Source: Mustelus asterias (taxonomy: Eukaryota). Taken from it: a stretch of DNA of 64,000 nucleotides. Numbering within the stretch: position 1 is the stretch's first letter; every line of letters starts with the position of its first letter. The DNA is taken from the NCBI RefSeq assembly GCF_964213995.1, contig NC_135808.1, positions 3,534,001 through 3,598,000 on the forward strand, written 5' to 3'. The translations under genes were made by a program, and so were the position numbers. The notes under the pieces are model-generated. The model was not told where the DNA came from and made no database searches. It worked only from the letters and a program-made list of their open reading frames with translations. Of this stretch, positions 4,030-54,600 are shown in pieces.

Positions 4030-4870
4030 CCGATCACACATTTCCCGCCTCCCCCCCGCGCTGTGGCAGTTTGTGTTTGAAACTCAGCCCCTTCCCCGGT
4101 CAGGCGCACGCGCTGCAAACCCCAATCAGCCTCGCGCTTCCTCCCGCTCGCTGCTCCTCCGCAGCCTCGCGCTCCGTCCCGCTCGCTGCTCCTCCGCAGC
4201 CTCGCGCTCCGTCCCGCTCGCTGCTCCTCCGCAGCCTCGCGCTCCCTCCCGCTCGCTGCTCCTCCGAAGCCTCGCGCTCCCTGCCGCTCGCTGCTCCTCC
4301 GCAGCCTCGCGCTCCCTCCCGCTCGCTGCTCCTCCGCAGCCTCGCGCTCCCTCCCGCTCGCTGCTCCTCCGCAGCCTCGCGCTCCCTCCCGCTCAACACC
4401 CCCGCAGCGCCGCGCGCTCCCTCCCGCTCAACACTCCCGCAGCGCCGCGCGCTCTCTCTCTCTCTCGCGCGCCAATCCACCAATCACAATCTAACTTCCC
4501 CCCCCCCCCCCCACCCGTCTTTTCCCGCTCGCCCACCCTCCAATCAGAGCGGGGCTTTTCCCGCCCCGCGCTCGCGCTGTGACCGTTGAGGTTTGAATCT
4601 TCAACTGCCGCCCGCTCTTTAGTCTGCGCCGAGCCCTGGTCCAGAGCGGCTGTGTTCACTCTGCCGCTTTCAAAAACAAATTTAAATTCAGGGAAAACCT
4701 GTTCGCATTTGACAGAATGAAGAATATCGATTGTCGCAGCCGCAGTGAGATGAGTCGGTTGTCTGACTGAATATGAGGACCTGAGTGAAGAATGTGAGAA
4801 GAAAAAGAGACCGAATGGTCATTGAAAACAGCGGAACACGACGCCGGCAATGCAATTGCGTTGTCACCAA
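4030..4870. promoter_or_regulatory. CpG-island-like promoter region with CCAAT and GC boxes
   Basis: High CpG density compared with the flanks; CCAAT at about 4122, 4472, 4480 and 4540; cccgcccc at about 4560; no linked coding exon identified. Confidence 0.6.
4130..4450. repeat. 35-bp CpG-rich minisatellite (about 7 full units plus 2 variants)
   Basis: Unit cctcgcgctccctcccgctcgctgctcctccgcag starting at 4130, 4165, 4200 ... 4375. Confidence 0.95.
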
Positions 4871-11275: not shown

Positions 11276-13751
11276 AGTGGTTATCTGTTCTCCAACAGTG
11301 CACAGACACAGAAATCAAGTTACAGAATACTAATTAGAATGCAAATCTCTACAGCCAGCCAGGTCTTAAAAGGTACAGATAATGTGGTTGGAGGGAACAT
11401 TAAACACAGGTTAAAGAGATGTGTATTGTCTCCAGACAGAACAGCTGGTGAGATTATGCAAGACCAGGGGCAAGCTGTGGGGGTTACTGATAATGTGACA
11501 TAAATCCAACATCCCAGTTTAGGCCATCCTCATGTGTGCGGAACTTAGCTATCAGTTTCTGCTCAGCGACTCTGCGCTGTCGTGTGTCGTGAAGGCCGCC
11601 TTGGAGAACGCTTACCTGAAGATCCAAGGCTGAATGCCCGTGACTGCTGAAGTGCAAGACAGCACCGAACATCACCCAAGCACAACGCAACGCCATCCAC
11701 GCTCTCAAGACCAACCGCAACATTGTCATCAAACCAGCAGACAAAGGAGGGGCCATCGTCATACTGAACAGAACGGATTACTGCAAAGAAGTGTACCGAC
11801 AACTGAACAACGAGGAACACTACAGACAGTTACCCACAGATCCAACCAAAGATCACACCCGTCAACTCAACACTCTGATCAAAACCTTTGATCCGGACCT
11901 TCAGAGCACCCTCCGTGCTCTCATCCCACGTACTCCACGCGTTGGAGATCTCTACTGCCTCCCAAAAATACACAAGGCGAACACACCCGGCCGTCCCATC
12001 GTTTCAGGAAATGGAACCCTGTGCGAGAACCTGTCCAGCTATGTCGAGGGCATCTTGAAACCCATTGTACAAAGAACCCCCAGCTTTTGTCGCGACACTA
12101 CGGACTTCCTACAGAAACTCAACACACATGGAGCAGTTGAACCAGGAGCACTCCTCGTCACAATGGATGTCTCGGCACTCTACACCAGCATCCCCCACGA
12201 TGATGGCATTGCTGCAACGGCCTCAGTACTCAATGCCGTCAACTGCCAGTTTCCAGATGCAATTTTACAACTCATCCGCTTCATCCTGGACCACAATATC
12301 TCCACCTTCAACAACCAGTTCTTCATCCAGACACACGGAACAGCCATGGGGACAAAATTCGCACCTCAATATGCCAACATCTTCATGCACAGGTTCGAAC
12401 AAGACTTCTTCACCGCACAGGACCTTCAACCGATGTTTTATACACTAGATACATTGATGACATTTTCTTCCTTTGGAGTCATGGTGAGCAATCACTGAAA
12501 CAACTATATGATGACATCAACAAGTTCCATCCCACCATCAGACTCACCATGGACTACTCTCCGGAATCGGTTGCATTCTTGGACACACGCATCCCCATTA
12601 AGGACGGTCGCCTCAAGACCTCACTATACCGCAAGCCCACGGATAACCTCTTGATGCTCCACTTCTCCAGCTTCCACCCTAAACACGTAAAAGAAGCCAT
12701 CCCCTACAGACAAGCCCTCCGAATACACAGGAACTGCTCAGATGAGGAGGATCGCAACAGACACCTCCAGACGCTGAAAGATGCCCTCATAAGAACAGGA
12801 TATGGCGCTCGACTCATCGATCAACAGTTCCGACGCGCCACAGCGAAAAACCGCACCGACCTCCTCAGAAGACAAACACGGGACACGGTGGACAGAGTAC
12901 CCTTCATCGTCCAGTACTTCCCTGGAGTGGAGAAGCTATGGCATCTCCTCCGGAGCCTTCAACATGTCATTGATGAAGACGAACATCTCGCCAAGGCCAT
13001 CCCCACACCCCCACTTCTTGCCTTCAAACAACCACACAACCTCAAACAGACCATTGTCCGCAGCAAACTACCCAGCCTTCAGGAGAACAGTGACCATGAC
13101 ACCACACAACCCTGCCACAGCAACCTCTGCAAGACGTGCCGGATCATCGACACGGATGCCATCATCTCACGTGAGAACACCATCTACCAGGTACACGGTA
13201 CATACTCTTGCAACTCGGCCAACGTTGTCTACCTGATACGCTGCAGGAAAGGATGTCCCGAGGCATGGTACATTGGGGAAACCATGCAGACACTACGACA
13301 ACGGATGAATGAACACCGCTCGACAATCACCAGGCAAGACTGTTCTCTTCCTGTGGGGGAGCACTTCAGCAGTCACGGGCATTCAGCCTTGGATCTTCAG
13401 GTAAGCGTTCTCCAAGGCGGCCTTCACAACACACGTCAGCGCAGAGTCGCTGAGCAGAAACTGATAGCCAAGTTCCGCACACATGAGGATGGCCTAAACT
13501 GGGATGTTGGATTTATGTCACATTATCAGTAACCCCCACAGCTCGCCACAGCTTTCCCCCTGATCTTGCATAATATCACTAGCTGTTCTGTCTGGAGACA
13601 ATACACATCTCTTTAACCTGTGTTTAATGTTCCCTCCACCCACATTATCTGTACCTTTTAAGACCTGGCTGGCTGTAGAGATTTGCATTCTAATTAGTAT
13701 TCTGTAACTTGATTTCTGTGTCTGTGTACTGTTGGAGAACAGATAACTACT

Positions 13752-21428: not shown

Positions 21429-22099
21429 CAATTAAAACCACAGTGGAGTTGAGTGCAAAATAGGATCTGAGGTTCTCATCATCAGAATATTTTTGTGGGA
21501 TCTTTTACATCCACTGGAGAGGACAGATTGGCATTGGTTTAACATCCAATCTGGAATCATTATTCCACCCGATCCCATGAGTTTCCTGTTTGGAAAGTGA
21601 GATTAAAACCCCTCTAGTTATATTTTCAGAATATCAGTGTATGTGGGAAGAAATTATGTGCTAGATTATCATCTCACTACTGGGCTGTGAGCTGACAAAG
21701 TTGACTTAAATCCTGCCGATTTAATTCCAATGATTTCTTATTTCCATCCCACCCTCTGGTTACAGTCTCCTCCAGAGAGCCCCAAGGCTCCATATTTGAC
21801 GCTCTCTAATTCCACATTTACATGGAGCCCATGGGTGTCATCAGCTGAAAGGACAAGGCCAGCTTGTGTGGGTGATGGTCAGACTTGCCTTTTCAGCCTC
21901 TCCAGCATACAGGTGACTTTCTCTAGCTGAATATCAGCAACACTGAGGCCACATTGTTCCCCCCTCCTCCCCCCACCAACTAAGCCCACACACTCAATCC
22001 CAAAACTCTCACTCACACATCCCAAAACTCACACACATCTCCCCTGCTCATGGAGCCATTCTCTCACACACTCACTAACTCCCATAAACACTAAATGAT

Positions 22100-24780
22100 T
22101 CACGCACCCTCCCTCCCTCATCCTCCCCATCTGCATCCCACCACCACCCCCCCCCGCCCTCCTTCTCCCCACCCATCTCCCCTCTTCAAACTGCCTCCCC
22201 TACGCTCCCTGCCTCTCTTCCACTCCCTCCCATCTCTGACTCTTCCTCCCTCACTTTCTCCCTTCCTCCCTCCCCCATCCTTCCTCACTCTGTCCCCTCC
22301 TGTTCTCTCTCCAACCCTTACTCGCTTTCTCTATCTCTCCGCCTCCCTTCCTCTCTCCGCCTCCATCCTCCTCCTTCCCTCTCTCCCATCTCACTCCTGA
22401 TCCTCTCTCTCTCCCCCTCCCTTCCTGCCTCTCCCTCTCCTCTCTCCCCTCCTGCGCTCTGCCTCCCCCTCACATCCCAACTCCCTCTTGCTCAGTCCTC
22501 TGTCCCCTCTCCCTCCCTCATCTTCTCTCACCCCTCCACCCTCGCCCCCTCTTTCACCCTCCCTTCTCTCTCCCACCCTCTCGCGCCCCTCTCTATCTGC
22601 ATCCCTCACCCTCACTTGCTCCCCCTCTCTCCCTCACTTCCCTCCTCTCCTCCTCCTCTTTCTCCCATCGCCTCGCCCCTCACTTCCGCTTTCATCCGCT
22701 CCCCTCCTTCCTACCTCTTCCCCCTGCTCCAACCCGTGACCTACCTCCCTGCCTCCCTTCTCTCAACCTCTCCCTCTGTCCTTCTCTCCGTCCCCCTCCA
22801 TCCTTCCTTTCCTTCTGTCTTGCTACCTCTTCCCGCCTGCACTCTCCCCCTCCCTCACCCTCGCTCGCCCATTATCCCTAACCCTCCCTCCCCCCCACCT
22901 CTGCCTCCCTAACCACTCCCTCTCTTCTCCCTCCCGTCTCTCCCCTTCCCTCTCTCTTGCTCCCACACCCTCCCTCCTCTCCTCCACTCCCTATCTCCCT
23001 CTCTCTCCCGTTCCATCCCCTACACTCCGTTGCTCCATAACTTTCTCCTCCCTCCCTCTCCCCCTCTTTCCTCCCCCTCCCTCTCTACCACCATCCTCCC
23101 TCTTTCCCTCGCTCCCTCTCTCTACCCCCTCCCTCTCTCTCTCTCCCTCCCTGCTCCCTCCTACTCCCCTCCTCACCTCCACTCCACTCCCCTCCTTTCT
23201 TCTCCTCCCTCCCTCTCTCATCCTCTCTCTCTCCCCGTCCATCTCTCACTCCATCCCTCCCACCTTCTCCCTCATTCTCCCCTCCCTCTCTGCCCCCCCT
23301 CTCCCTGCCTCCCTTACCATCCGTCACCCTCACTCCCTCTCGGCATCTTCCTCCCCCTCTCTACCTCCGCCTCCTTCATTCCCTCCCTCTCTCTCACTCA
23401 CTCCCTCTCTCTCACTCACTTCCCACTTTCTCCCACCCTCTCTCTTGCTGCCCTCTCTCTCATTCCCTCCCTCACCCTCACTCATTCCCTCTCCCTCCCT
23501 CCCTCCCCTGCTTCTGTCTCTCTATCCTCCCCTTCCTTCTCTCCCCCCCCCTCTCCCCCTCCCTCCTTCTATTACCCCTGCTCCAACCTTCCTTCTCTTT
23601 CCCCGTCTCTGCTCCCTCTCTTTCCCACCCTCTATCCCTCCTTCCCATAATCCCTTATCCTCTCTCCCCCTCCCACCCTCTATCTCCTCTTCCGTCTCTC
23701 ACTCCCTCCACTCTCTCCCTTTCTTCCTCCCCTTCTTCCCTCTCTCCCTCACCCTCTCCTATCTCCCTCACTCGCCATCTCCCATCATCCTTCACCCTCC
23801 TAGGCCCCTCTCCCTTCCTCCCCTCTTGCCCCACCTTCTCTGTCCCCACTCTATCCCACCCTCTCTCTTGCCCTCTCTATCTGACTCCTGCCCTCTCTCT
23901 CACTCACTCTCTTCCCCTCACTCTCCATCTCCATGACATCTCCTTCAATCCCCCTCCCTCCTTTCTCCACCCTCCCCTGCTCCAACCTACCCCTCACTCC
24001 CTCCTCCATCCTGCTCACAACCTCCCTCCCTCTTGCCTCCATCCCTCACTCCGTCCCTCCATACAGCTGTTGCCCTCCTCCCTCTCTGCCTTCCCCCCCC
24101 TCCCCCCGTCTGCCTCTCCCCCTCCCTCCCTCCCCATCTCCCTTTCCCATCCCTTCCCCCTCCCTCCCCTCCCTCCTATCTCTCCCTCTGCCCCCTTCTC
24201 CTCCCCTCTCTCGCTCCCCCTCCCTCCCCCACTTCCCCGCCCCCACTGATCTTCTTCCCACGTCTCCTGCTCTCTCTCCCCAACTCCCTCTCCCTCCTCC
24301 GTCTACCTACCCCTCATCTCCCTCCCCCCATCTCCCCCTCCCTTCCGCCATTCACCCCTCCCTTCCATCTTTCCCCTCCCTCCCCCTTTCCCCCCCCCCG
24401 TCCCTTCCGCCATTCACCCCTCCCTTCTATCTTTCCCCTCCCTCCCCCTTTCCCCCCCCCTCCTCCCTCTCTCCACCCTCCCTTCCCTCTCCTTCCCCCT
24501 CCTTCTCTTCCCTCCCTCCCGGGCCTCTTTCCACCCCCGGCCCGCTCCACTCCCCTCCCCTCCCCCATCCCCTCTTCTCCACCCACCCACTAGCCCTCTC
24601 CTCTTCTCCCCTCCCCCACCCCGGCCCGACCCTCTTTTCTCTCCCCCTCCCCCCACTTCCCAGCCCTCTTTCCCCCCTCCGTCCTCTCTTTCCCTCCCTC
24701 CTCCCGGCCCTCTCATTCCCTCTCCTCCCGGCCCTGTCCTCTTCCGCCCTCCCACCCCTTCACTGCCTCCCAGTGAATCT
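22100..24780. repeat. About 2.7 kb low-complexity C/T-rich polypyrimidine tract
   Basis: Almost purine-free + strand; the P/S/L-rich ORFs here are artefacts. Confidence 0.95.
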
Positions 24781-24809
24781 CTTTAATTCTCTGCTTCTAA
24801 TTCTCCCAG

Positions 24810-25340
24810 TCTCTGTGACCCTGGATGTGGAAACAGCAACTCCCTGCCTCGAGGTGTCAGAGGATCTGAAGAATTACACACTGGCCATGACTAAGAGGAG
24901 TCTCCCTGACACCTGGAAGAGGTTTACACACTGGCCCTGTGCGCTGGGATCAGAGGGATTCACATCGGAGAGACATTACTGGGAGGTGGAGGTGATGGTG
25001 AATTGGTGGTGGAGACTGGGAGTCGCCGCACTGTCTGTGGAAAGGAAGGACTAGGTCAGTCTGAGCCCAGAGACTGGATTCCGAACCATTGGGCAGATTA
25101 GAGATCAGTTTCATATTAACTTCTCTCCTCCATCCTCTCTCCCTGTCTGTCAGATCCTCAGGAAGGTGGGAGTTTATCTCAGTTGTGAGTCTGGGACAGT
25201 TTAATTTTACAACGCAGACACCAAGTCCCATCTCCACACCCTCAGTGGGAATAAATTCACCCAGAAACTTTATTCTTTCTTCTGAACTTGGAATGTAAAC
25301 CAGTGGCTGAAAATCTGCTCCGGTTCTGATCCGGATAAGA
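24810..25340 (+). pseudogene. B30.2/PRY-SPRY terminal exon (TRIM/BTN type), disrupted
   Basis: ctcccag| acceptor then VSVTLDVETATPCLEVSEDLK...LPDTWKRFTHWPCALGSEGFTSERHYWEVEV...WRLGVA; in-frame TAG at 25052 and downstream frameshifts. Confidence 0.88.
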
Positions 25341-30846: not shown

Positions 30847-30984
30847 TTCTATGGCCAAGCCAGCTCTGAATCCATCCAGCTACTTCACCCCTGATCCCAT
30901 GTGATTTCATCTTTTGCACCAGCCTGTCATGAGGGACCTTGTCAAATGCTTTACTAAAGCCCATATAGACAACATCCACAACCC

Positions 30985-31532
30985 TGCACACAGTCAGCGC
31001 AGGAAACCCCTGCGCACAGTCAGCGCAGGAAACCCCTGCGCACAGTCAGCACTGGAAACCCCTGCGCACAGTCAGCACTGGAAACCCCTGCGCACAGTCA
31101 GCACTGGAAACCCCTGCGCACAGTCAGCACTGGAAACCCCTGCGCACAGTCAGCACTGGAAACCCCTGCGCACAGTCAGCACTGGAAACCCCTGCGCACA
31201 GTCAGCACTGGAAACCCCTGCGCACAGTCAGCACTGGAAACCCCTGCGCACAGTCAGCACTGGAAACCCCTGCGCACAGTCAGCACTGGAAACCCCTGCG
31301 CACAGTCAGCACTGGAAACCCCTGCGCACAGGAAACCCCTCCGCACAGTCAGCACTGGAAACCTCCGCACAGTCAGCACTGGAAACCCCTCCGCACAGTC
31401 AGCACTGGAAACCCCTCCGCACAGGAAACCCCTCCGCACAGTCAGCACAGGAAACCCCTCCTCACAGTCAGCACTGGAAACCCCTCCACACAGTCAGCAC
31501 TGGAAACCCCTCCACACAGTCAGTACAGGAAA
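30985..31532. repeat. 26-bp minisatellite (about 20 units)
   Basis: Unit cacagtcagcactggaaacccctgcg; explains the periodic 234-aa ORF. Confidence 0.95.
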
Positions 31533-31759
31533 CCAAAACAAAAAAGTTTGCGTTGGAGCTTTGCAACAGTTTAAGGAAGGAGTTGTCGACAAGAGAGCAG
31601 GATAGTGTGTTGAAATGATAAGCGACAGGAAGGTCTGGCTCCTGCTTATGGACAGACCAGAGGTGTTCTGCAAAGCGGTCACCCAGTCTGCATATCCTTT
31701 CACCCACCTCCAGCCTTCTCCCTGGGACATCTGCCACATGGCTCAGGTTGTCCTGACCT

Positions 31760-40397: not shown

Positions 40398-42110
40398 ATT
40401 ACTACATCTCTCCAGGATCTGTTTCCCTATCTGCTCCTCAACATCCCTGTTACTATTGGGCGGCCTGTAGAAAACACCCAGCAAAGTTATCAACCCCTTC
40501 CCGCTCCGAACTTCCACCCACAGAGACTCCGTAGATAATCCCTCCACGGCTTCCACCTGCTCTACAGCTGTGACACTATCACTGATCAGCAGTGCTACTC
40601 CCCCCCACCCCTCTTTTGCCTCCCTCTCTGTCCTTTCTGAAACATCTGAAACCCGGCACCTTAAGTATTCCGCCTTGTCCCTGTCCCCAAGTCTCCATAA
40701 TGGCCACCACATCACACTTCCAAGCATCGATCCACACTCTAAGCTCATCCACTTTATTCACTACACTCCTGGCGTTAAAATAGACACATCTCAAACCTTT
40801 GGTCTGAGCTCTCCCCTTCTCCATCACCCGTCTATTCTCCCTCTTACACTGTCTACAATCCTTCTCTATTTGCAGGCTAACCTCCTCACTCTCAGTCCTC
40901 TCATCTCGATTCCCTCCCCCCAACATTTCTAGTTTAAAGTCTCCCCAGTGGCCTTAGCCAACCTTCCTGCCAGGATATTGGTCCCCCTGGGATTCAAGTG
41001 CCACCCGTCTTTTTTGTACAGGTCACACCTGCCCCGAAAGAGGTCCCAATGATCCAGGAACCTGAATCCCTGGCCCCCGCTCCAGTCCCTCAGCCACGCA
41101 TTCATCCTCCACCTCACTCCATTCCTGCTCTCACTTTCCCGTGGTACAGGCAGCAATCCTGAGATTACTACCTTTGCGTTCCTCCTTCCCAACTGTCTAC
41201 CTAACTCCCTATATTCTCTTTTCATGACCCCTTTCCTCTTCCTACCTATGTCAGCGGTACCAATGTGTACCACGACCTCTGGCTCCTCTCTCTCCCACCT
41301 CAGGATATCTGGGACACGATCAGAGACATCCCGGATCCCGGCACCAGGCAGGCAGATCACCATCTGAGACTCCCGTCTGCCTCCGCAAAAACGCCTGTCC
41401 GATCCCCTTACTGTTGAGTCCCCGATTAATACTGCCTTCCTCCCCCTTTCCTTAGCCCTCTGAGTTACAGGGCCGGACTCTGCTCCAGAGACACGGCCAC
41501 TGCTGCTTCCCCCAGGTGGGCTGTCCCCCCCAGCAGTACTCAGACAGGAGTACTTATTGTGAAGGGGCACATCCACTGGGGTGCTCTTTATCACCCGAGA
41601 TTTCCCCTTCCTGGATGTTACCCACTTGTCTGCCTCCCGTGCTTCTCGGCCTTTTGGCTAAGATCAAGTGTAGTTATGCGGATGCTGCACTTGGTTGAGG
41701 TCATTAGGTTACATTGAAGCTTCATATGTTTCATATGAAGCAATTTTTAAAAGCGGAATCTCGGCCTTTTGGCTAAGATGCAAATGAGCTCAAGTCTTGG
41801 AGGAGGAATTGCTTTCCCTCCTCCAATCAGCTTGGCTCATGTAGATCAGGCCCAGGACAGGGCAAATGGTCGCTTGCCCTGTCTTGCCAGCCTGGATCGG
41901 AAATGTCTCAACTTGTTGAGACTCTGAATTGGACTTGATTTGATTGAATTGGAAAAGTATTTTAAAAAAACTTGTCTGCCTCCCGTGGCCCTGGTGTGAC
42001 CACCTGCTGATAGCTCCTGTCTATCACCTCCTCATTTTCCCTAACCAGACGAAGATCCTCGAGCTGCAGTTCCAGTTCTCTAACATGGTCCCTTAGGAAC
42101 CGCAGCTCGA
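40398..42110 (-). mobile_element. CR1 5' part (ORF1 esterase and ORF2 start)
   Basis: GDSTVRG..HIGTAD..DGWHLN; YFNARSVVNK. Confidence 0.92.
41641..41970 (+). mobile_element. U2 snRNA-headed SINE-like element (copy 1)
   Basis: U2 nt 4-37 (gcttctcggccttttggctaagatcaagtgtagt), second U2 segment at 41759-41779, hairpin-rich body, A-tail, TSD cttgtctgcctcccgtg (41625-41641 / 41971-41987); inserted in CR1 ORF1. Confidence 0.88.
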
Positions 42111-48125: not shown

Positions 48126-48129
48126 GGGT

Positions 48130-48415
48130 TTTTTTTGTTTATATCCAATCAAAGTCTCAATAAGTGAGACATTACAGATCCAAGCTGACAAGACAGGTTG
48201 GCCGTTTCCTGTCTTGGGCTTGATCTGCATTATCCAAGCTGATAGGAGCAGGCATTGCACCTCCAAGGCATGATCTCATTTGAATCTTAGCCAAAAGGTC
48301 TAGATGCTGCTTTAAAAAATTGCTTCAAATAAAGCCTCAGTGTAACCTTATGACTTCAACCAAGTGCAGGATGCCAAAACTACACTTGATTTTAGCCAAA
48401 AGGCCAAGAAGCGAT
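48130..48415 (-). mobile_element. U2 snRNA-headed SINE-like element (copy 2, diverged)
   Basis: Reverse strand starts at U2 nt 1 (atcgcttcttggccttttggctaaaatcaagtgtagt), has the same body order and second U2 segment, and ends in an A-rich tail. Confidence 0.85.
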
Positions 48416-48679: not shown

Positions 48680-51600
48680 GTAAGGAATATTAACATTTAT
48701 TTAAGTAATGATACAGTTCCACCTTCACAGCAAAATTGTATGTCTAATTAAGTTCTCTGCTGTTACAGAATTTAGTTGTTTGGTCAGTAGGCTTACTTTG
48801 GAAAAGCAGATAAGTCTCAGACTGCACATTGAAAAGGCAGTTCAGCAACAAGCTGCAACTTAAAATTCTTGTGCTTTAAATGTGTTATAATCACCCCTCA
48901 CTAACACCACCCATTTTACTTCTGTCACATCGCCTGACCTCCCCCGTCTCTGCAGTTGTTTCTGTACAGAATCTAAACCACCATTTGTCAAACAATGAAA
49001 CTTAGTTGTTGCTCCGACATTCCTCATTTCAACTCCGTGCCTATCGTTTTCTGGCAGACTGAGGAGTGGGGTGCTTTGACTCAAAGCTAACACTGGAATC
49101 AGACTTTCAAAAGGAGAGTCAGAAGAAAAAGCCAGACAGACAGCAAGGCCTGCTCTATAAGGGATGTTTCTGATTTATGTTAACACGGTGCAGTCATTTA
49201 TGTATTCAGTGATCATACAGACATAAGTTGCATCAAAGCAACTTAAGTGATTACTATTCTATTAGTTATTATTCTATATGTTTGCCTTACTCTGAGACAA
49301 AAGCAGATAAAATCACTCAACTCGTGTTGGCTTGGTTTGATGTGGTAAGAAGTTTAACAACACCAGGTTAAAGTCCAACAGGTTTATTTGGTAGCAAAAG
49401 CCACACAAGCTTTCGGAGCTCTAAGCCCCTTCTTCAGGTGAGTGGGAATTCTGTTCACAAACAGAGCTTATAAAGACACAGACTCAATTTACATGAATAA
49501 TGGTTGGAATGCGAATACTTACAACTAATCAAGTCTTTAAGAAACAAAACAATGTGAGTGGAGAGAGCATCAAGACAGGCTAAAAAGATGTGTATTGTCT
49601 CCAGACAAGACAGCCAGTGAAACTCTGCAGGTCCACGCAACTGTGGGAGTTACAAATAGTGTGACATGAACCCAATATCCCGGTTGAGGCCGTCCTCGTG
49701 TGTGGGGAACTTGGCTATCAGTTTCTGCTCAGCGACTCTGCGCTGTCATGTGTCGCAAAGGCCGCCTTGGAGAACGCTTACCCGAATATCAGAGGCCGAA
49801 TGCCCGTGACCACTGAAGTGCTCCCCAACAGGAAGAGAACAATCTTGCCTGGTGATTGTCGAGCGGTGTTCATTCATCCGTTGTCGCAGCGTCTGCATAG
49901 TTTCCCCAATGTACCATGCCTCGGGACATCCTTTCTTGCAGCGTATCAGGTAGACAACGTTGGCCGAATTGCAAGAGTATGTACCGTGTACCTGGTGGAT
50001 GGTGTTCTCACGTGAGATGATGGCATCTGTGTCGATGATCCGGCACGTCTTGCAGAGGTTGCTGTGGCAGGGTTGTGTGGTGTCATGGTCACTGTTCTCC
50101 TGAAGGCTGGGTAGTTTGCTGTGGACAATGGTCTGTTTGAGGTTGTGCGGTTGTTTGAAGGCAAGAAGTGGGGGTGTGGGGATGGCCTTGATGAGATGTT
50201 CGTCTTCATCAATGACATGTTGAAGGCTCCGGAGGAGATGCCGTAGCTTCTCCGCTCCGGGGAAGTACTGGACAACGAAGGGTACTCTGTCCACTGTGTC
50301 CCGTGTTTGTCTTCTGAGGAGGTCGGTGCGGTTTTTCGCTGTGGCGCGTTGGAACTGTTGATCAATGAGTCGAGCGCCATATCCTGTTCTTATGAGGGCA
50401 TCTTTCAGCGTCTGGAGGTGTCTGTTGCGATCCTCCTCATCCGAGCAGATCCTGTGTATACGGAGGGCTTGTCCATAGGGGATGGCTTCTTTAACGTGTT
50501 TAGGGTGGAAGCTGGAGAAGTGGAGCATCGTGAGGTTATCCGTGGGCTTGCGGTACAGTGAGGTGCTGAGGTGACCGTCCTTAATGGAGATGCGTGTGTC
50601 CAAGAATGCAACCGATTCCGGAGAGTAGTCTATGGTGAGCCTGATGGTGGGATGGAACTTGTTGATGTCATCATAGAGTTGTTTCAGTGATTGTTCACCA
50701 TGAGTCCAAAGGAAGAAAATGTCATCGATGTATCTAGTGTATAGCATCGGTTGAAGGTCCCGTGCGGTGAAGAAGTCTTGTTCGAACCTGTGCATGAAGA
50801 TGTTGGCATATTGAGGTGCGGATTTGGTCCCCATGGCTGTTCCGTGTGTCTGGATGAAGAACTGGTTGTTGAAGGTGAAGATATTGTGGTCCAGGATGAA
50901 GCGGATGAGATGTAAAATTGCATCTGGAAACTGGCAGTTGTTGGTGAACTGTTGGGAGAACAGTGACCATGACACCACACAACCCTGCCACAGCAACCTC
51001 TGCAAGACATGCCGGATCATCGACACAGATGCCATCATCTCACGTGAGAACACCATCCACCAGGTACACGGTACATACTCTTGCAATTCGGCCAATGTTG
51101 TCTACCTGATACGCTGCAAGAAAGGATGTCCCGAGGCATGGTACATTGGGGAAACTATGCAGACGCTGCGACAACGGATGAATGAACACCGCTCGACAAT
51201 CACCAGGCAAGACTGTTCTCTTCCTGTTGGGGAGCACTTCAGTGGTCACGGGCATTCGGCCTCTGATATTCGGGTAAGCGTTCTCCAAGGCGGCCTTCGC
51301 GACACATGACAGCGCAGAGTCACTGAGCAGAAACTGATAGCCAAGTTCCGCACACACGAGGATGGCCTCAACCGGGATATTGGGTTCATGTCACACTATT
51401 TGTAACTCCCACAGTTGCGTGGACCTGCAGAGTTTCACTGGCTGTCTTGTCTGGAGAGAATACACATCTTTTTAGCCTGTCTTGATGCTCTCTCCACTCA
51501 CATTGTTTTGTTTCTTAAAGACTTGATTAGTTGTAAGTATTCGCATTCCAACCATTATTCATGTAAATTGAGTCTGTGTCTTTATAAGCTCTGTTTGTGA

Positions 51601-54600
51601 ACAGAATTCCCACTCACCTGAAGAAGGGGCTTAGAGCTCCGAAAGCTTGTGTGGCTTTTGCTACCAAATAAACCTGTTGGACTTTAACCTGGTGTTGTTA
51701 AACTTCTTACTGTGTTTACCCCAGTCCAACGCCGGCATCTCCACATCTTGGTTTGATGTCACAGAGATGTAGACCCTAGTGCATGGAGTTGCAATGTCAT
51801 CTAAAATGAATAGGAATTTGCCGTACATGTTCACACATACATACCCTTCAGCATGGAAACATAGAAGATAGGAGCACGAGAAGGCCAGTTGAGCCTGCTC
51901 CAGCACTCATCACGATCATGGCTGATCGTCCAACTCAATTGCCTAATCCTGCTTTCTTCACATAACCTTTGATTCCATTTGCCCCAAGTGCTATATCCAG
52001 CTGCTTCTTGAATACATTCAATGTTTTTGTACCAACTACTTCTTATGGTATTGAATTCCACTGGTTCACCACTCTTTGGGTGAAGAAATGTCTCCTCATC
52101 TCAGTCCTAAATGGTCTACTCCAAATCCTCAGATTGTGACCCCTGGTTTTGGACTCCCCTACTGTCGGGAACATCCTTCCTGCATCTACCTTGTCTAGTC
52201 CTGTTAGAATTTTATAAGTCTCTATGAGATCCCCTCTCATTCGTCTGAACTCCAGCGAAAACAATCCTAACCTAGTCAATCTCTCCTCATACATCAGACC
52301 TGCCATTCCCAGAATCAGCCTGGTAAACCTTCGCCGCACTCCCTCGAGAGCAAGAACATCTTTCCTCCGAAAAAGAGACCAAAACAGCACACAATGTTCT
52401 AGGATTACTGTGTCACTCTTTATCCTATGTGGCACAGCATATTTTCCTTTAAGATGATTCTAAATAGTTTGAAGTCTATCAAATGGAGATGCTTGTACCA
52501 GGTATGGTAACGATTGACACAGTATAGAACCCAGTAATTGTGCTGAATGATAGGTGTGTGGGGAAGGAAAATTCCTATTCACTGGGTAAGGTTTATTAAG
52601 GACAGATTATATTCAGCAAGGCTGACTGACTTACTGTTTCACTGCAATTATATACAGAGGACATATTGAGCTAAATGAATGACTACAACTCAAATATAAT
52701 TTGATTTAATTGAACCTGATGATAGAATTGATGTTTTGTGGGATAAAACGGTTACCATGTTTAGCATAATTAATGTGTTCCTGAAAAACAACATGTTAAA
52801 TGAAAACCTGCTCATCAAAAATCATTTTCCCCACAAGAATACAGGTATTAAAGGGTGGGTTATATTCCTGACCTGAAAATTTTAAAGTAAGCACCGAGCT
52901 GGGTGACTCTGGGGGCTGAGGGGGGCTGACTCTGGGGGCGGATAAGAACCCTGCTGATGTTAAAAGCAAGGGTCTCCCAAAACCCAGAAGGGTAACTTGG
53001 AACGCCAGTTCTTATTGGTGTATATTTTCAATTTGTATACTGAGAGAAAAGATATGCAAAACCAGTGAGGAATAGTCTAATTGTTTTGTGATCAATTAAA
53101 AATAATATTCATTAACTGAACAGAAAACCACACTTAACTACACAAATGGCTATACACACAGTATTACATGAAGTTACACCTTGGTTCCCAATTACCTATG
53201 TTTCCTCAATTCTGAGGTGCTCCTTTGTTCCCAAGAAACATCCAATATTAAAAACTCAATGAGCCAAGTCCAGCAGATAATTACCATGCACAGGTTATTT
53301 CTTCACGTTTGGGAAAACCATCTTCAGTTTCAACGGGGCAAAATCTTCTCAGATCTAATTTGCGATCTTAACTGGCTGCCATTTTTGCAAAACTGTTTTT
53401 CAGGAGACTTACTGCAGTTGGGTATGGCTGTGATTGTAGCTGCAACTTTGTGCCTTTCTCCAGTTCTTGTGTTATGGATATATAATTCTTTCCCTTTGAT
53501 GTTGCCCACCCTAGTTTTCAGCAGATACATGTCAATTTTCTTATCTTTCCACTTTGAAGTTCTCTCTTCTATACTCCATTGTTTTCCTTGAGTCACATAG
53601 GTAAACACTCACTTCTCTCACTGGTATGCTACTTCACATATTAAAATCCCTTCAGACAGCTGTCCTATACAATTTCCTTTTTTTTATTTTATCCCAATTT
53701 CATTTTTTAAATCTTAACTTCCCCCAAGTTTTAAATGAAATGTCATAATTTGAAAGACAATTTCACAGCATTGTGTGCATTTGACAAGAGTGGCTGGGAA
53801 CAACTGTTCTCCCAGAAATCTTTTAAGGGCTGCAGCCATTTGAAGTAAGAGTGAATCTTTCCCCCCCCGGAATTGAACCCATTAGTACCAGAAGACTATC
53901 AACATGGGAAATATGGGCACAGTCCAGTCATTTAAATGCCAGTACAGATTCCAGAATTTCAGGTGTAAATCTCTAGTTTTCTTTTACAACTAAACTCTTC
54001 CATGGACTGCTGCTCTGATTTTCAAAACCGATCAAAGATTGCCCAGGCTTCATACGCTTCCAATAATTTGCCCTTTTTGTAAATCTAATCCAAACATTGT
54101 AACAGAAGATCCGATCCCTCTTCTTGATCCAGATCATCCTCTGAAAATACCTTACTCCATATTCTACTTTTGGTTGGGAATGATAATACTATTGCCATAC
54201 CTTGCTTCTTTCAGGGTTTGGAAATAACCCAGGGCCACATTTCAACTTCAGCTTTCCATCACTGATATGGTTCAGAGTCAGAAAAACTTGATGGATAGTC
54301 AAAACTTGCAATTTTGCACCATTCTGTAACTTAAATTGTCAGCAATAGTACACTTGTTTTCATCAGAGGATGGAGACAAAAGGCTTCACATACAGCAGTC
54401 AGTCACCAAGCTTAAGGCTCATCCTCTGTGACCATTGCTACTCACAATAATTGGTTGTGGTGTAAGAATCGCTCCAGACTGGTCTATGGGTTCAAGCTAT
54501 TTTATTGTAAACCTCTTTCTCAGAGCTGCTGGCCTGCAAGGAGCTCAACCCACAAAGCGGCGAGTACAGGATTGAACCCCAACCTTGGCATTATTAGCAC

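Follow-up and report, generated by a model that had tools for sequence, protein, structure and literature searches.

Within the 64,000-nt window analyzed here (Mustelus asterias, contig NC_135808.1, positions 3,534,001 to 3,598,000), a short element headed by a piece of U2 snRNA interrupts the open frame of a dead LINE, which we take to be a CR1/L2-type ORF1. This element, copy 1, occupies 41641-41969 on the plus strand, has an A-tract at its 3' end, and is flanked by an 18-nt direct repeat (Table 1). An earlier sequence-only reading of this DNA had started the element at 41664, which is too late, as it begins upstream, at U2 nt 4. Nucleotides 1-37 of the genome's U2 are identical to the head of the subfamily consensus, and U2 nt 38 is T instead of A in copy 1. 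A second, older copy lies on the opposite strand.

Table 1. Features of copy 1, its surroundings, and copy 2 (window positions)
Feature	Position	Strand	Remarks
Host sequence: open frame of dead LINE, interrupted by copy 1	40929..41623	-	
5' target site duplication (TSD), 18 nt	41624..41641	+	Last base common to head; same 18-mer at 41624 and 41970
U2 snRNA head, nt 4-37, including branch-pairing nt 33-37	41641..41674	+	Rfam U2 match of 48.4 bits, driven by head
Masking arm, pairs with U2 nt 25-36	41685..41697	+	Pairing probability ~1.0 over nt 29-36
Remnant of U4 5' stem-loop (kink-turn), eroded; modeled as paired with U2 nt 11-21	41699..41720	+	
Hairpin 2	41719..41741	+	9-nt insertion lengthens hairpin in young subfamilies
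Sm-site-like AATTTTT	41742..41748	+	Predicted unpaired; canonical 3' G missing; U4 its probable source
Second, internal copy of U2 nt 7-27, forming stem-loop I	41759..41779	+	97.1% of cells paired
Hairpin 4	41785..41839	+	Two compensatory pairs versus U1-headed family (columns 63/95, 64/94); hypervariable loop
Hairpin 5	41844..41898	+	AU to GC with GU intermediates (column 120/166); 3' arm from U2 nt 44-61
Hairpin 6, descendant of U2 stem IIb	41905..41922	+	CG to TA compensatory pair (column 182/194)
3' tail and A-tract	41923..41969	+	End resembles tail of U2-inserted LINE
3' target site duplication	41970..41987	+	Identical 18-mer
Copy 2, older U2-headed subfamily member	48129..48415	-	No TSD found

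The sequence-only reading had proposed a comparison with Rfam. U2 alone was matched in the window, with copy 2 scoring 42.9 bits, both matches being carried by the first 37 nt, against ~190 bits for true U2 genes of the same genome. The miRNA matches in this search were palindromes below the gathering score and were discarded, and no ribozyme family was matched. Nor did the window contain a match to the internal tRNA, 7SL, or 5S promoter of a classical Pol III SINE, and the element carries internal T4 and T5 runs. No snRNA promoter lies upstream of either window copy; one is present only at a few copies embedded in U2 genes.

Elsewhere in the window, reverse transcriptase (RT)-bearing elements with long inverted repeats, presumably Penelope-like, lie at 49345-51710 and 11644-13532. 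A short open frame at 24900-25054, which ends in what we take to be a PRY/SPRY-like stretch, follows a long pyrimidine-rich tract (22000-25000), and tandem repeats of 26-bp and 35-bp units occupy 30904-31597 and 4057-4499.

Predicted fold of the window copies

The minimum free energy (MFE) structure of 41638-41945 (-132.4 kcal/mol; z = -7.91, with none of 100 dinucleotide shuffles as good) contains all of the stems named in the sequence-only reading. The pairing of TCAAGTGTAG (41664-41673) with CTGCACTTGG (41685-41694) was found where it had been placed in copy 1, as were the arms at 41719-41728/41732-41741 and 41797-41806/41817-41826 and those at 41856-41865/41874-41883, nested within 41844-41851/41890-41898. 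The arms at 41905-41912/41915-41922 were also correctly located, with the amendment that this hairpin has 7 bp and a 4-nt loop. AATTTTT does follow a hairpin, without the 3' G that this genome's U4 has at its Sm site. The exchange of GC for AT at 41849/41892, offered as a compensatory change, is real: in an alignment of 57 of the 223 copies described below (alignment A1), this pair is AU in 31, GC in 19, GU in 7, and unpaired in none. The statement that copy 2 keeps the stems fails for hairpin 2, which is short and weakened, and for hairpin 4, which has a 6-nt deletion and a mismatch.

A dispersed family of short retroposons

A 20-nt body motif has at least 4,574 exact matches in the 3.68-Gb genome (control, 0), and the best 40 of 2,318 candidates are 98 to 100% identical to copy 1. 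From the loci examined we extracted 223 distinct copies of at least 120 nt, duplicates being removed by junction; 192 were U2 headed, and dropping 26 that were not near full length left 166. In a positional sample from contig C1, 8 of 100 copies had no scorable tail and were left out; exact TSDs of 8 to 23 nt flank 45 of the remaining 92, another U2 head directly follows the copy in 10 of 92, and flanks are varied. The start site falls within U2 nt 1-7 in 53 of 100 copies, and the 13 copies that start at nt 1 have upstream DNA unrelated to one another. Clustering of the 166 near-full-length copies gave 10 subfamilies of at least three members (96 copies), each only 1.3 to 3.9% diverged from its own consensus, yet with loops replaced. 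Judged from these sequence features, the dispersed, A-tailed, TSD-flanked family is a retroposon, a parasite resembling the SINEU elements of crocodilians.

Several loci show further arrangements. At L045 (100-2160), five U2-headed copies stand in tandem with the same target duplication between them, and a U1-headed copy lies just downstream. Extra U2 fragments 5' of the head at L277, L278, L098, L094, and L026, some with a few bases of U2 promoter, suggest template jumps. L043 (1821-1900) and the region downstream of the copy at L040 contain short elements of greater age that have just one body hairpin, in one case together with a U2-like head; these are possibly an ancestral form. Segment 41784-41965 matched 76, 0, 1226, and 213 records in the contigs of four runs, counts that speak to presence only and not to expression.

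A mosaic of snRNA parts

An older family, 9.6% diverged from its consensus, has the same body behind a head of U1 nt 1-95. Against the genome's own snRNAs, the U1-headed consensus aligns to U1 nt 1-95, U4 nt 17-47 (consensus 114-147), U2 nt 7-34, and U2 nt 44-112 (consensus 285-357), and each of the four alignments beats 200 of 200 shuffles. The last of these places the origin of hairpin 6 in U2 stem IIb. The old and mid consensuses align through the U4 remnant, and because of the U4 alignment we read the distal arm of the head hairpin as an eroded U4 stem-loop. We accordingly gave up the view that the entire 3' arm of this hairpin arose by inversion of the head, since its distal half comes from U4; the proximal 12 nt of the masking arm may derive from an inversion or from a piece of U1 loop II of the old family. 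In the old family, hairpins 4 and 5 duplicate one another, and hairpin 2 grew via a symmetric insertion. A resemblance of hairpin 4 to U2 stem IV, noticed by eye, gained no support from local alignments. Of 31 U1-headed copies (L190-L218), 15 retain an intact U4 kink-turn-like motif.

Like U2 snRNA (RF00004), then, the element has nt 1-37, an internal copy of nt 7-27, and a 3' part from nt 44-112. Unlike U2, apart from its far lower Rfam score, it has a remodeled stem IIa, and dispersed copies lack stems III and IV and the canonical Sm site, which occur only in the U2 remainder of U2-embedded copies; AATTTTT is followed by A or T. The likeness to U2 stops at nt 37/38, with the hexamer reading GTAGTT in 59 of 147 copies and GTAGTA in 56 of 147, and the intact GUAGUA followed by stem IIa that marks a U2 gene was not found.

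Insertions in U2 genes and a candidate partner LINE

At 10 sites, the tail of the element is joined directly to U2 nt 39 (control, 0). Four of these junctions have U2 upstream DNA and a head in front, one follows a LINE tail within the main U2 array, and three more U2-embedded copies were found besides this set. Some copies in U2 genes at nt 38/39 thus stand behind an intact U2 upstream region. The order promoter, head, body was seen in all six type-B matches, and at least ~90 nt of the type-A promoter in two of seven matches. Within the TSDs of two dispersed copies, L086 and L094, lies flanking DNA of U2 loci, suggesting that these copies arose from transcripts of such loci. None of the 11 promoter-adjacent copies carries the head loop typical of the subfamily to which copy 1 belongs, and the source of that subfamily was not found among them; mapping of ~170 kb of U2 regions revealed no tandem or homogenized array of the element. 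Taken together, the arrangement of these loci makes it probable that the element would be transcribed from U2 promoters.

The candidate partner is a young, mostly dispersed LINE with a zinc-knuckle ORF1, an APE-type endonuclease, and pieces of RT. It is inserted at U2 nt 38/39 with the same junction as the SINE and a 21-nt duplication, close to the U2 site of Keno, which we take to be at about nt 37/38. Of 16 LINE 3' ends, three continue into U2 nt 39, one lies immediately before a SINE head, and 12 lie elsewhere. Its nearest named matches are to L1 ORF2, and it combines an APE endonuclease and RT with insertion in U2 genes, as a Keno-type element does. The ties between the two elements are those that sequence can provide, namely, the shared U2 junction, stacking, and similar tails, and they make mobilization by this Keno-like LINE likely.

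Two features of the U2 loci were recorded alongside. In L081 (1510-7158; G000:C24:44.81-44.94 Mb), an 8,035-bp tandem unit made of a U2 gene and a broken U2-headed LINE is repeated at least 15 times at ~100% identity, and in this LINE, too, the 5' end folds back onto the U2 head. Another type of U2 gene, ~85 to 87% identical to the main type in the 3' part and with a short spacer, forms a cluster at G000:C21:28.05-28.08 Mb that is heavily invaded by the LINE and has one SINE insertion.

Probable constraint on the stems

All 11 consensuses fold to one layout (z from -5.0 to -11.3; 30 shuffles each), all 11 have an MFE more stable than that of the reverse strand, and the Sm-like GCAATTTTT is unchanged in every one. 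Since dead copies mutate neutrally while source lineages are filtered, the family offers a natural control that is absent from host RNAs. We compared stem variants over 75 shared pairs in 162 copies (four hyper-edited copies having been removed from the 166), calling variants common in at least 10 copies and rare in 5 or fewer. The pair was kept by 12 of 13 common variants, compared with 129 of 373 rare instances (p = 3e-5). These instance counts replace an earlier comparison of shared with singleton variant types (26/39 versus 18/123), an approach abandoned as being biased by recurrent transitions. Between consensuses, variation affects 19 of 90 stem columns and 40 of 85 other columns (p = 4e-4); among 14 variable pairs, 10 are paired throughout and 4 are broken in some lineage. 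A table of alleles (16 in 150 stem versus 58 in 99 loop columns) is indicative only, as it is inflated by loop misalignment.

Covariation was more modest. With the structure taken from copy 1, 94.5% of cells at the 44 named pairs of alignment A1 pair, and 47 cells carry double changes, compared with 16.5 after shuffling (0 of 500 shuffles reached this), although the shuffles ignore relatedness, so that shared descent is counted. At the level of pairs, the control was not significant (7 pairs with a double change versus 6.0 shuffled; 168/500), and only four pairs, spread over three helices, are truly compensatory and recurrent. RNAalifold, which the sequence-only reading had suggested, was run on the 57 raw copies; it returned -12.7 kcal/mol and 22 pairs, missed most stems, and paired hairpins 4 and 5 otherwise, a result we regard as uninformative because the copies are decayed and these hairpins duplicated. 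Pairing is preserved by 25 of 41 stem variants found within the youngest subfamily, a proportion exceeding the neutral control rate that may reflect shared sublineage changes.

An alternative in which the retroposon is the same but stems arise and persist by mutational bias would draw on fold-back template switching, quasi-palindrome correction, tandem duplication of hairpins, and ADAR-type A>G change that turns A-U into G-U. Signs of such routes exist. Inverted head fragments lie beside copies L003, L043, and L121, hairpins 4 and 5 are duplicated and hairpin 2 was extended symmetrically as described above, several stems were inherited from U2, A>G outnumbers every other change (214 of 776), and A/G opposite U accounts for 5 of the 12 common pair-keeping variants. 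However, the excess persists once A/G-opposite-U changes are removed, with the pair kept by 7 of 8 common variants versus 80 of 324 rare instances (24.7%; p = 4e-4), and by 6 of 7 common variants when the GU intermediate at 204/244 is removed as well. The four double changes fall in three different helices, and loops vary far more than stems, that of hairpin 4 having 50 haplotypes in 127 copies. Mutational bias is accordingly an improbable explanation of the stems.

The claim of the sequence-only reading that the source RNA is structurally constrained is thus supported by stem-variant counts, covariation cells, column variability, and pair retention. The structure is conserved at the level of source lineages, and constraint on the stems is likely, from few events. 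That selection acts on them has a high probability, and the constraint is best read as selection on the active retroposon RNA.

Probable editing at the RNA stage

Four of the 166 copies carry 12 to 27 sense-strand A>G changes (L168-160, L046+983, L121-1302, and L025-1845, with 27, 22, 14, and 12, respectively), and T>C clusters occur in none. Edited sites have a 5' U or A neighbor in 51 of 74 cases compared with 61 of 175, a preference that presumably fits ADAR. These copies are likely ADAR-edited RNA written back into DNA, and the clusters show a double-stranded RNA intermediate. As proof of the predicted fold they were rejected: editing does not confirm it because edited adenosines are no more often in predicted stems (37/74 versus 103/175). 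In all four copies, the clusters are concentrated in the 5' two thirds and nearly spare the 3' ~100 nt.

Predicted masking of the U2 head

The sequence-only reading had the fold mask the branch site. This holds for most of it, as the predicted helix covers U2 nt 25-36 and thus four of six branch-pairing bases. In both window copies, nt 29-36 are paired with a modeled probability of ~1.0, compared with the U2 gene itself, in which nt 34-38 are predicted to be open. Nearly all copies are predicted to keep the greater part of the branch-pairing segment hidden, with at least 10 of 11 pairs at nt 25-35 retained in 155 of 166; an A-C mismatch at U2 A35 characterizes one subfamily (16 copies). For the U1-headed consensus, pairing is likewise predicted at the 5' end, with which U1 recognizes splice donors. 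This is weaker evidence because masking is partial in seven single U1-headed copies (weak in three) and because the isolated U1 gene is itself predicted to be 0.4 to 0.9 paired at the 5' end. The LINE's own U2 head folds back as well, with its shortened branch-pairing bases staying in a loop.

Stems could instead be selected solely because they stabilize the RNA or let the LINE protein recognize it, with the hiding of the head a side effect. Compensatory stem-loops occur in ordinary SINE tails, as far as the available text of PMC4824008 describes them, all four double changes here lie in the body and none in the head helix, and the 3' ~100 nt is nearly free of A>G clusters. The U4 remnant was, moreover, already complementary to the U2 head (duplex, -32.2 kcal/mol). 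Against this explanation, two different heads are predicted to be paired over the segments that bind pre-mRNA, and nt 25-35 stay paired while the adjoining loop has 64 haplotypes in 128 copies. We consider a pure side effect quite improbable. The fold as modeled hides the intron-binding segment of U2, likely allowing production from U2 genes without jamming splicing; that masking protects against a dominant-negative U2 is a more tentative proposal.

Discussion

Our preferred reading, which we hold with some confidence as a whole, is that the element is a retroposon built from U2, U4, and, in the old branch, U1, transcribed from U2 promoters and mobilized by a Keno-like LINE, with a fold predicted to hide its intron-binding segment. 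From U2-embedded copies, Pol II would produce a capped RNA whose first nucleotide is U2 +1, and the LINE protein would prime on the encoded A-tract and insert copies mostly at dispersed sites. On the statistical evidence, a change that became common in the source lineages almost always preserved the stems, with turnover in the loops, and selection would act on the parasite in its RNA form. Pairing of the head likely keeps a broken U2-like RNA off branch points and U6, and the body hairpins likely give stability or binding to the LINE protein.

A bolder proposal, unlikely in our estimate, makes the parasite a mimic of snRNPs: a ~480-nt U2-SINE-U2 chimera would be capped, loaded with Sm proteins, and carried by an export and reimport cycle to the LINE protein and back into the nucleus, and the lineage would have evolved a muzzling helix twice, first for the U1 head and then for the U2 head, sparing splicing. 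That the source is, as the sequence-only reading proposed, a host-maintained structured noncoding RNA or a spliceosome-inert U2 variant or decoy, with the copies as its processed pseudogenes, would suit the strong fold, the invariant Sm-like site, the modules from three snRNAs, and the copies under U2 promoters, but it is highly improbable given thousands of dispersed, A-tailed, TSD-flanked copies, rapid turnover among many coexisting subfamilies with hypervariable loops, the swap of head from U1 to U2, the stacking of new copies on older ones at one target, promoter-adjacent copies that differ among themselves and are in some cases damaged, and the missing tandem array in the U2 regions mapped.

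Parasites with snRNA heads are known from crocodilians, where SINEU-1, -2, and -3 are short A-tailed retroposons with U1- or U2-derived heads that show repeated head addition, tandem insertions around one TSD, and internal oligo-T (Kojima 2015, PMC4494074). Their proposed partner is a Tx1-clade LINE related to Keno, their preferred target is Mariner-N4, none were found outside crocodilians, and their mode of transcription was left open (PMC4494074); a review, in its available part, lists them for crocodilians (PMC5381603). The shark element shares the structural features just named, and its heads (U1 nt 1-95 or U2 nt 1-37; 0/200 shuffles) introduce a short, noncoding, multicopy unit flanked by TSDs. 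By analogy it would work like SINEU, to which it is likened by general definition and not by body sequence. The shark copies differ in lying within U2 genes at the Keno site behind U2 promoters, in containing a U4 piece, and in having a head that is predicted to be masked; the main text of PMC4494074 contains no RNA-structure analysis. We found no description of the family in cartilaginous fish in the literature searched, and Repbase or Dfam, which lay outside this search, may hold it.

Keno (Tx1 clade) and Utopia are LINEs of U2 genes that have one U2 site in common, and Keno has an APE-like endonuclease, according to the accessible portion of PMC4640811. On that portion, the LINE described here resembles Keno in its APE-type endonuclease and its presence in U2, and the SINE uses the same junction. 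Keno and Utopia are autonomous whereas the SINE is not, and the shark LINE is mostly dispersed, with 12 of 16 junctions outside U2 or SINE heads. Alu folds on SRP9/14 and provides a precedent for selection on the fold of a SINE in its RNA form, as would be the case here. R2, which is cotranscribed with 28S rRNA (cited in PMC4494074), likewise borrows the promoter of its target gene; here the borrowed promoter would be a Pol II snRNA promoter and not Pol I or Pol III, and, in a further difference from R2 and Alu, no ribozyme family was matched.

How promoterless snRNA-headed SINEs are transcribed becomes a directly testable question with a family that is young, abundant, and present inside U2 genes. 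The structural result adds a second testable idea, that a parasite borrowing parts of spliceosomal RNAs must disarm them.
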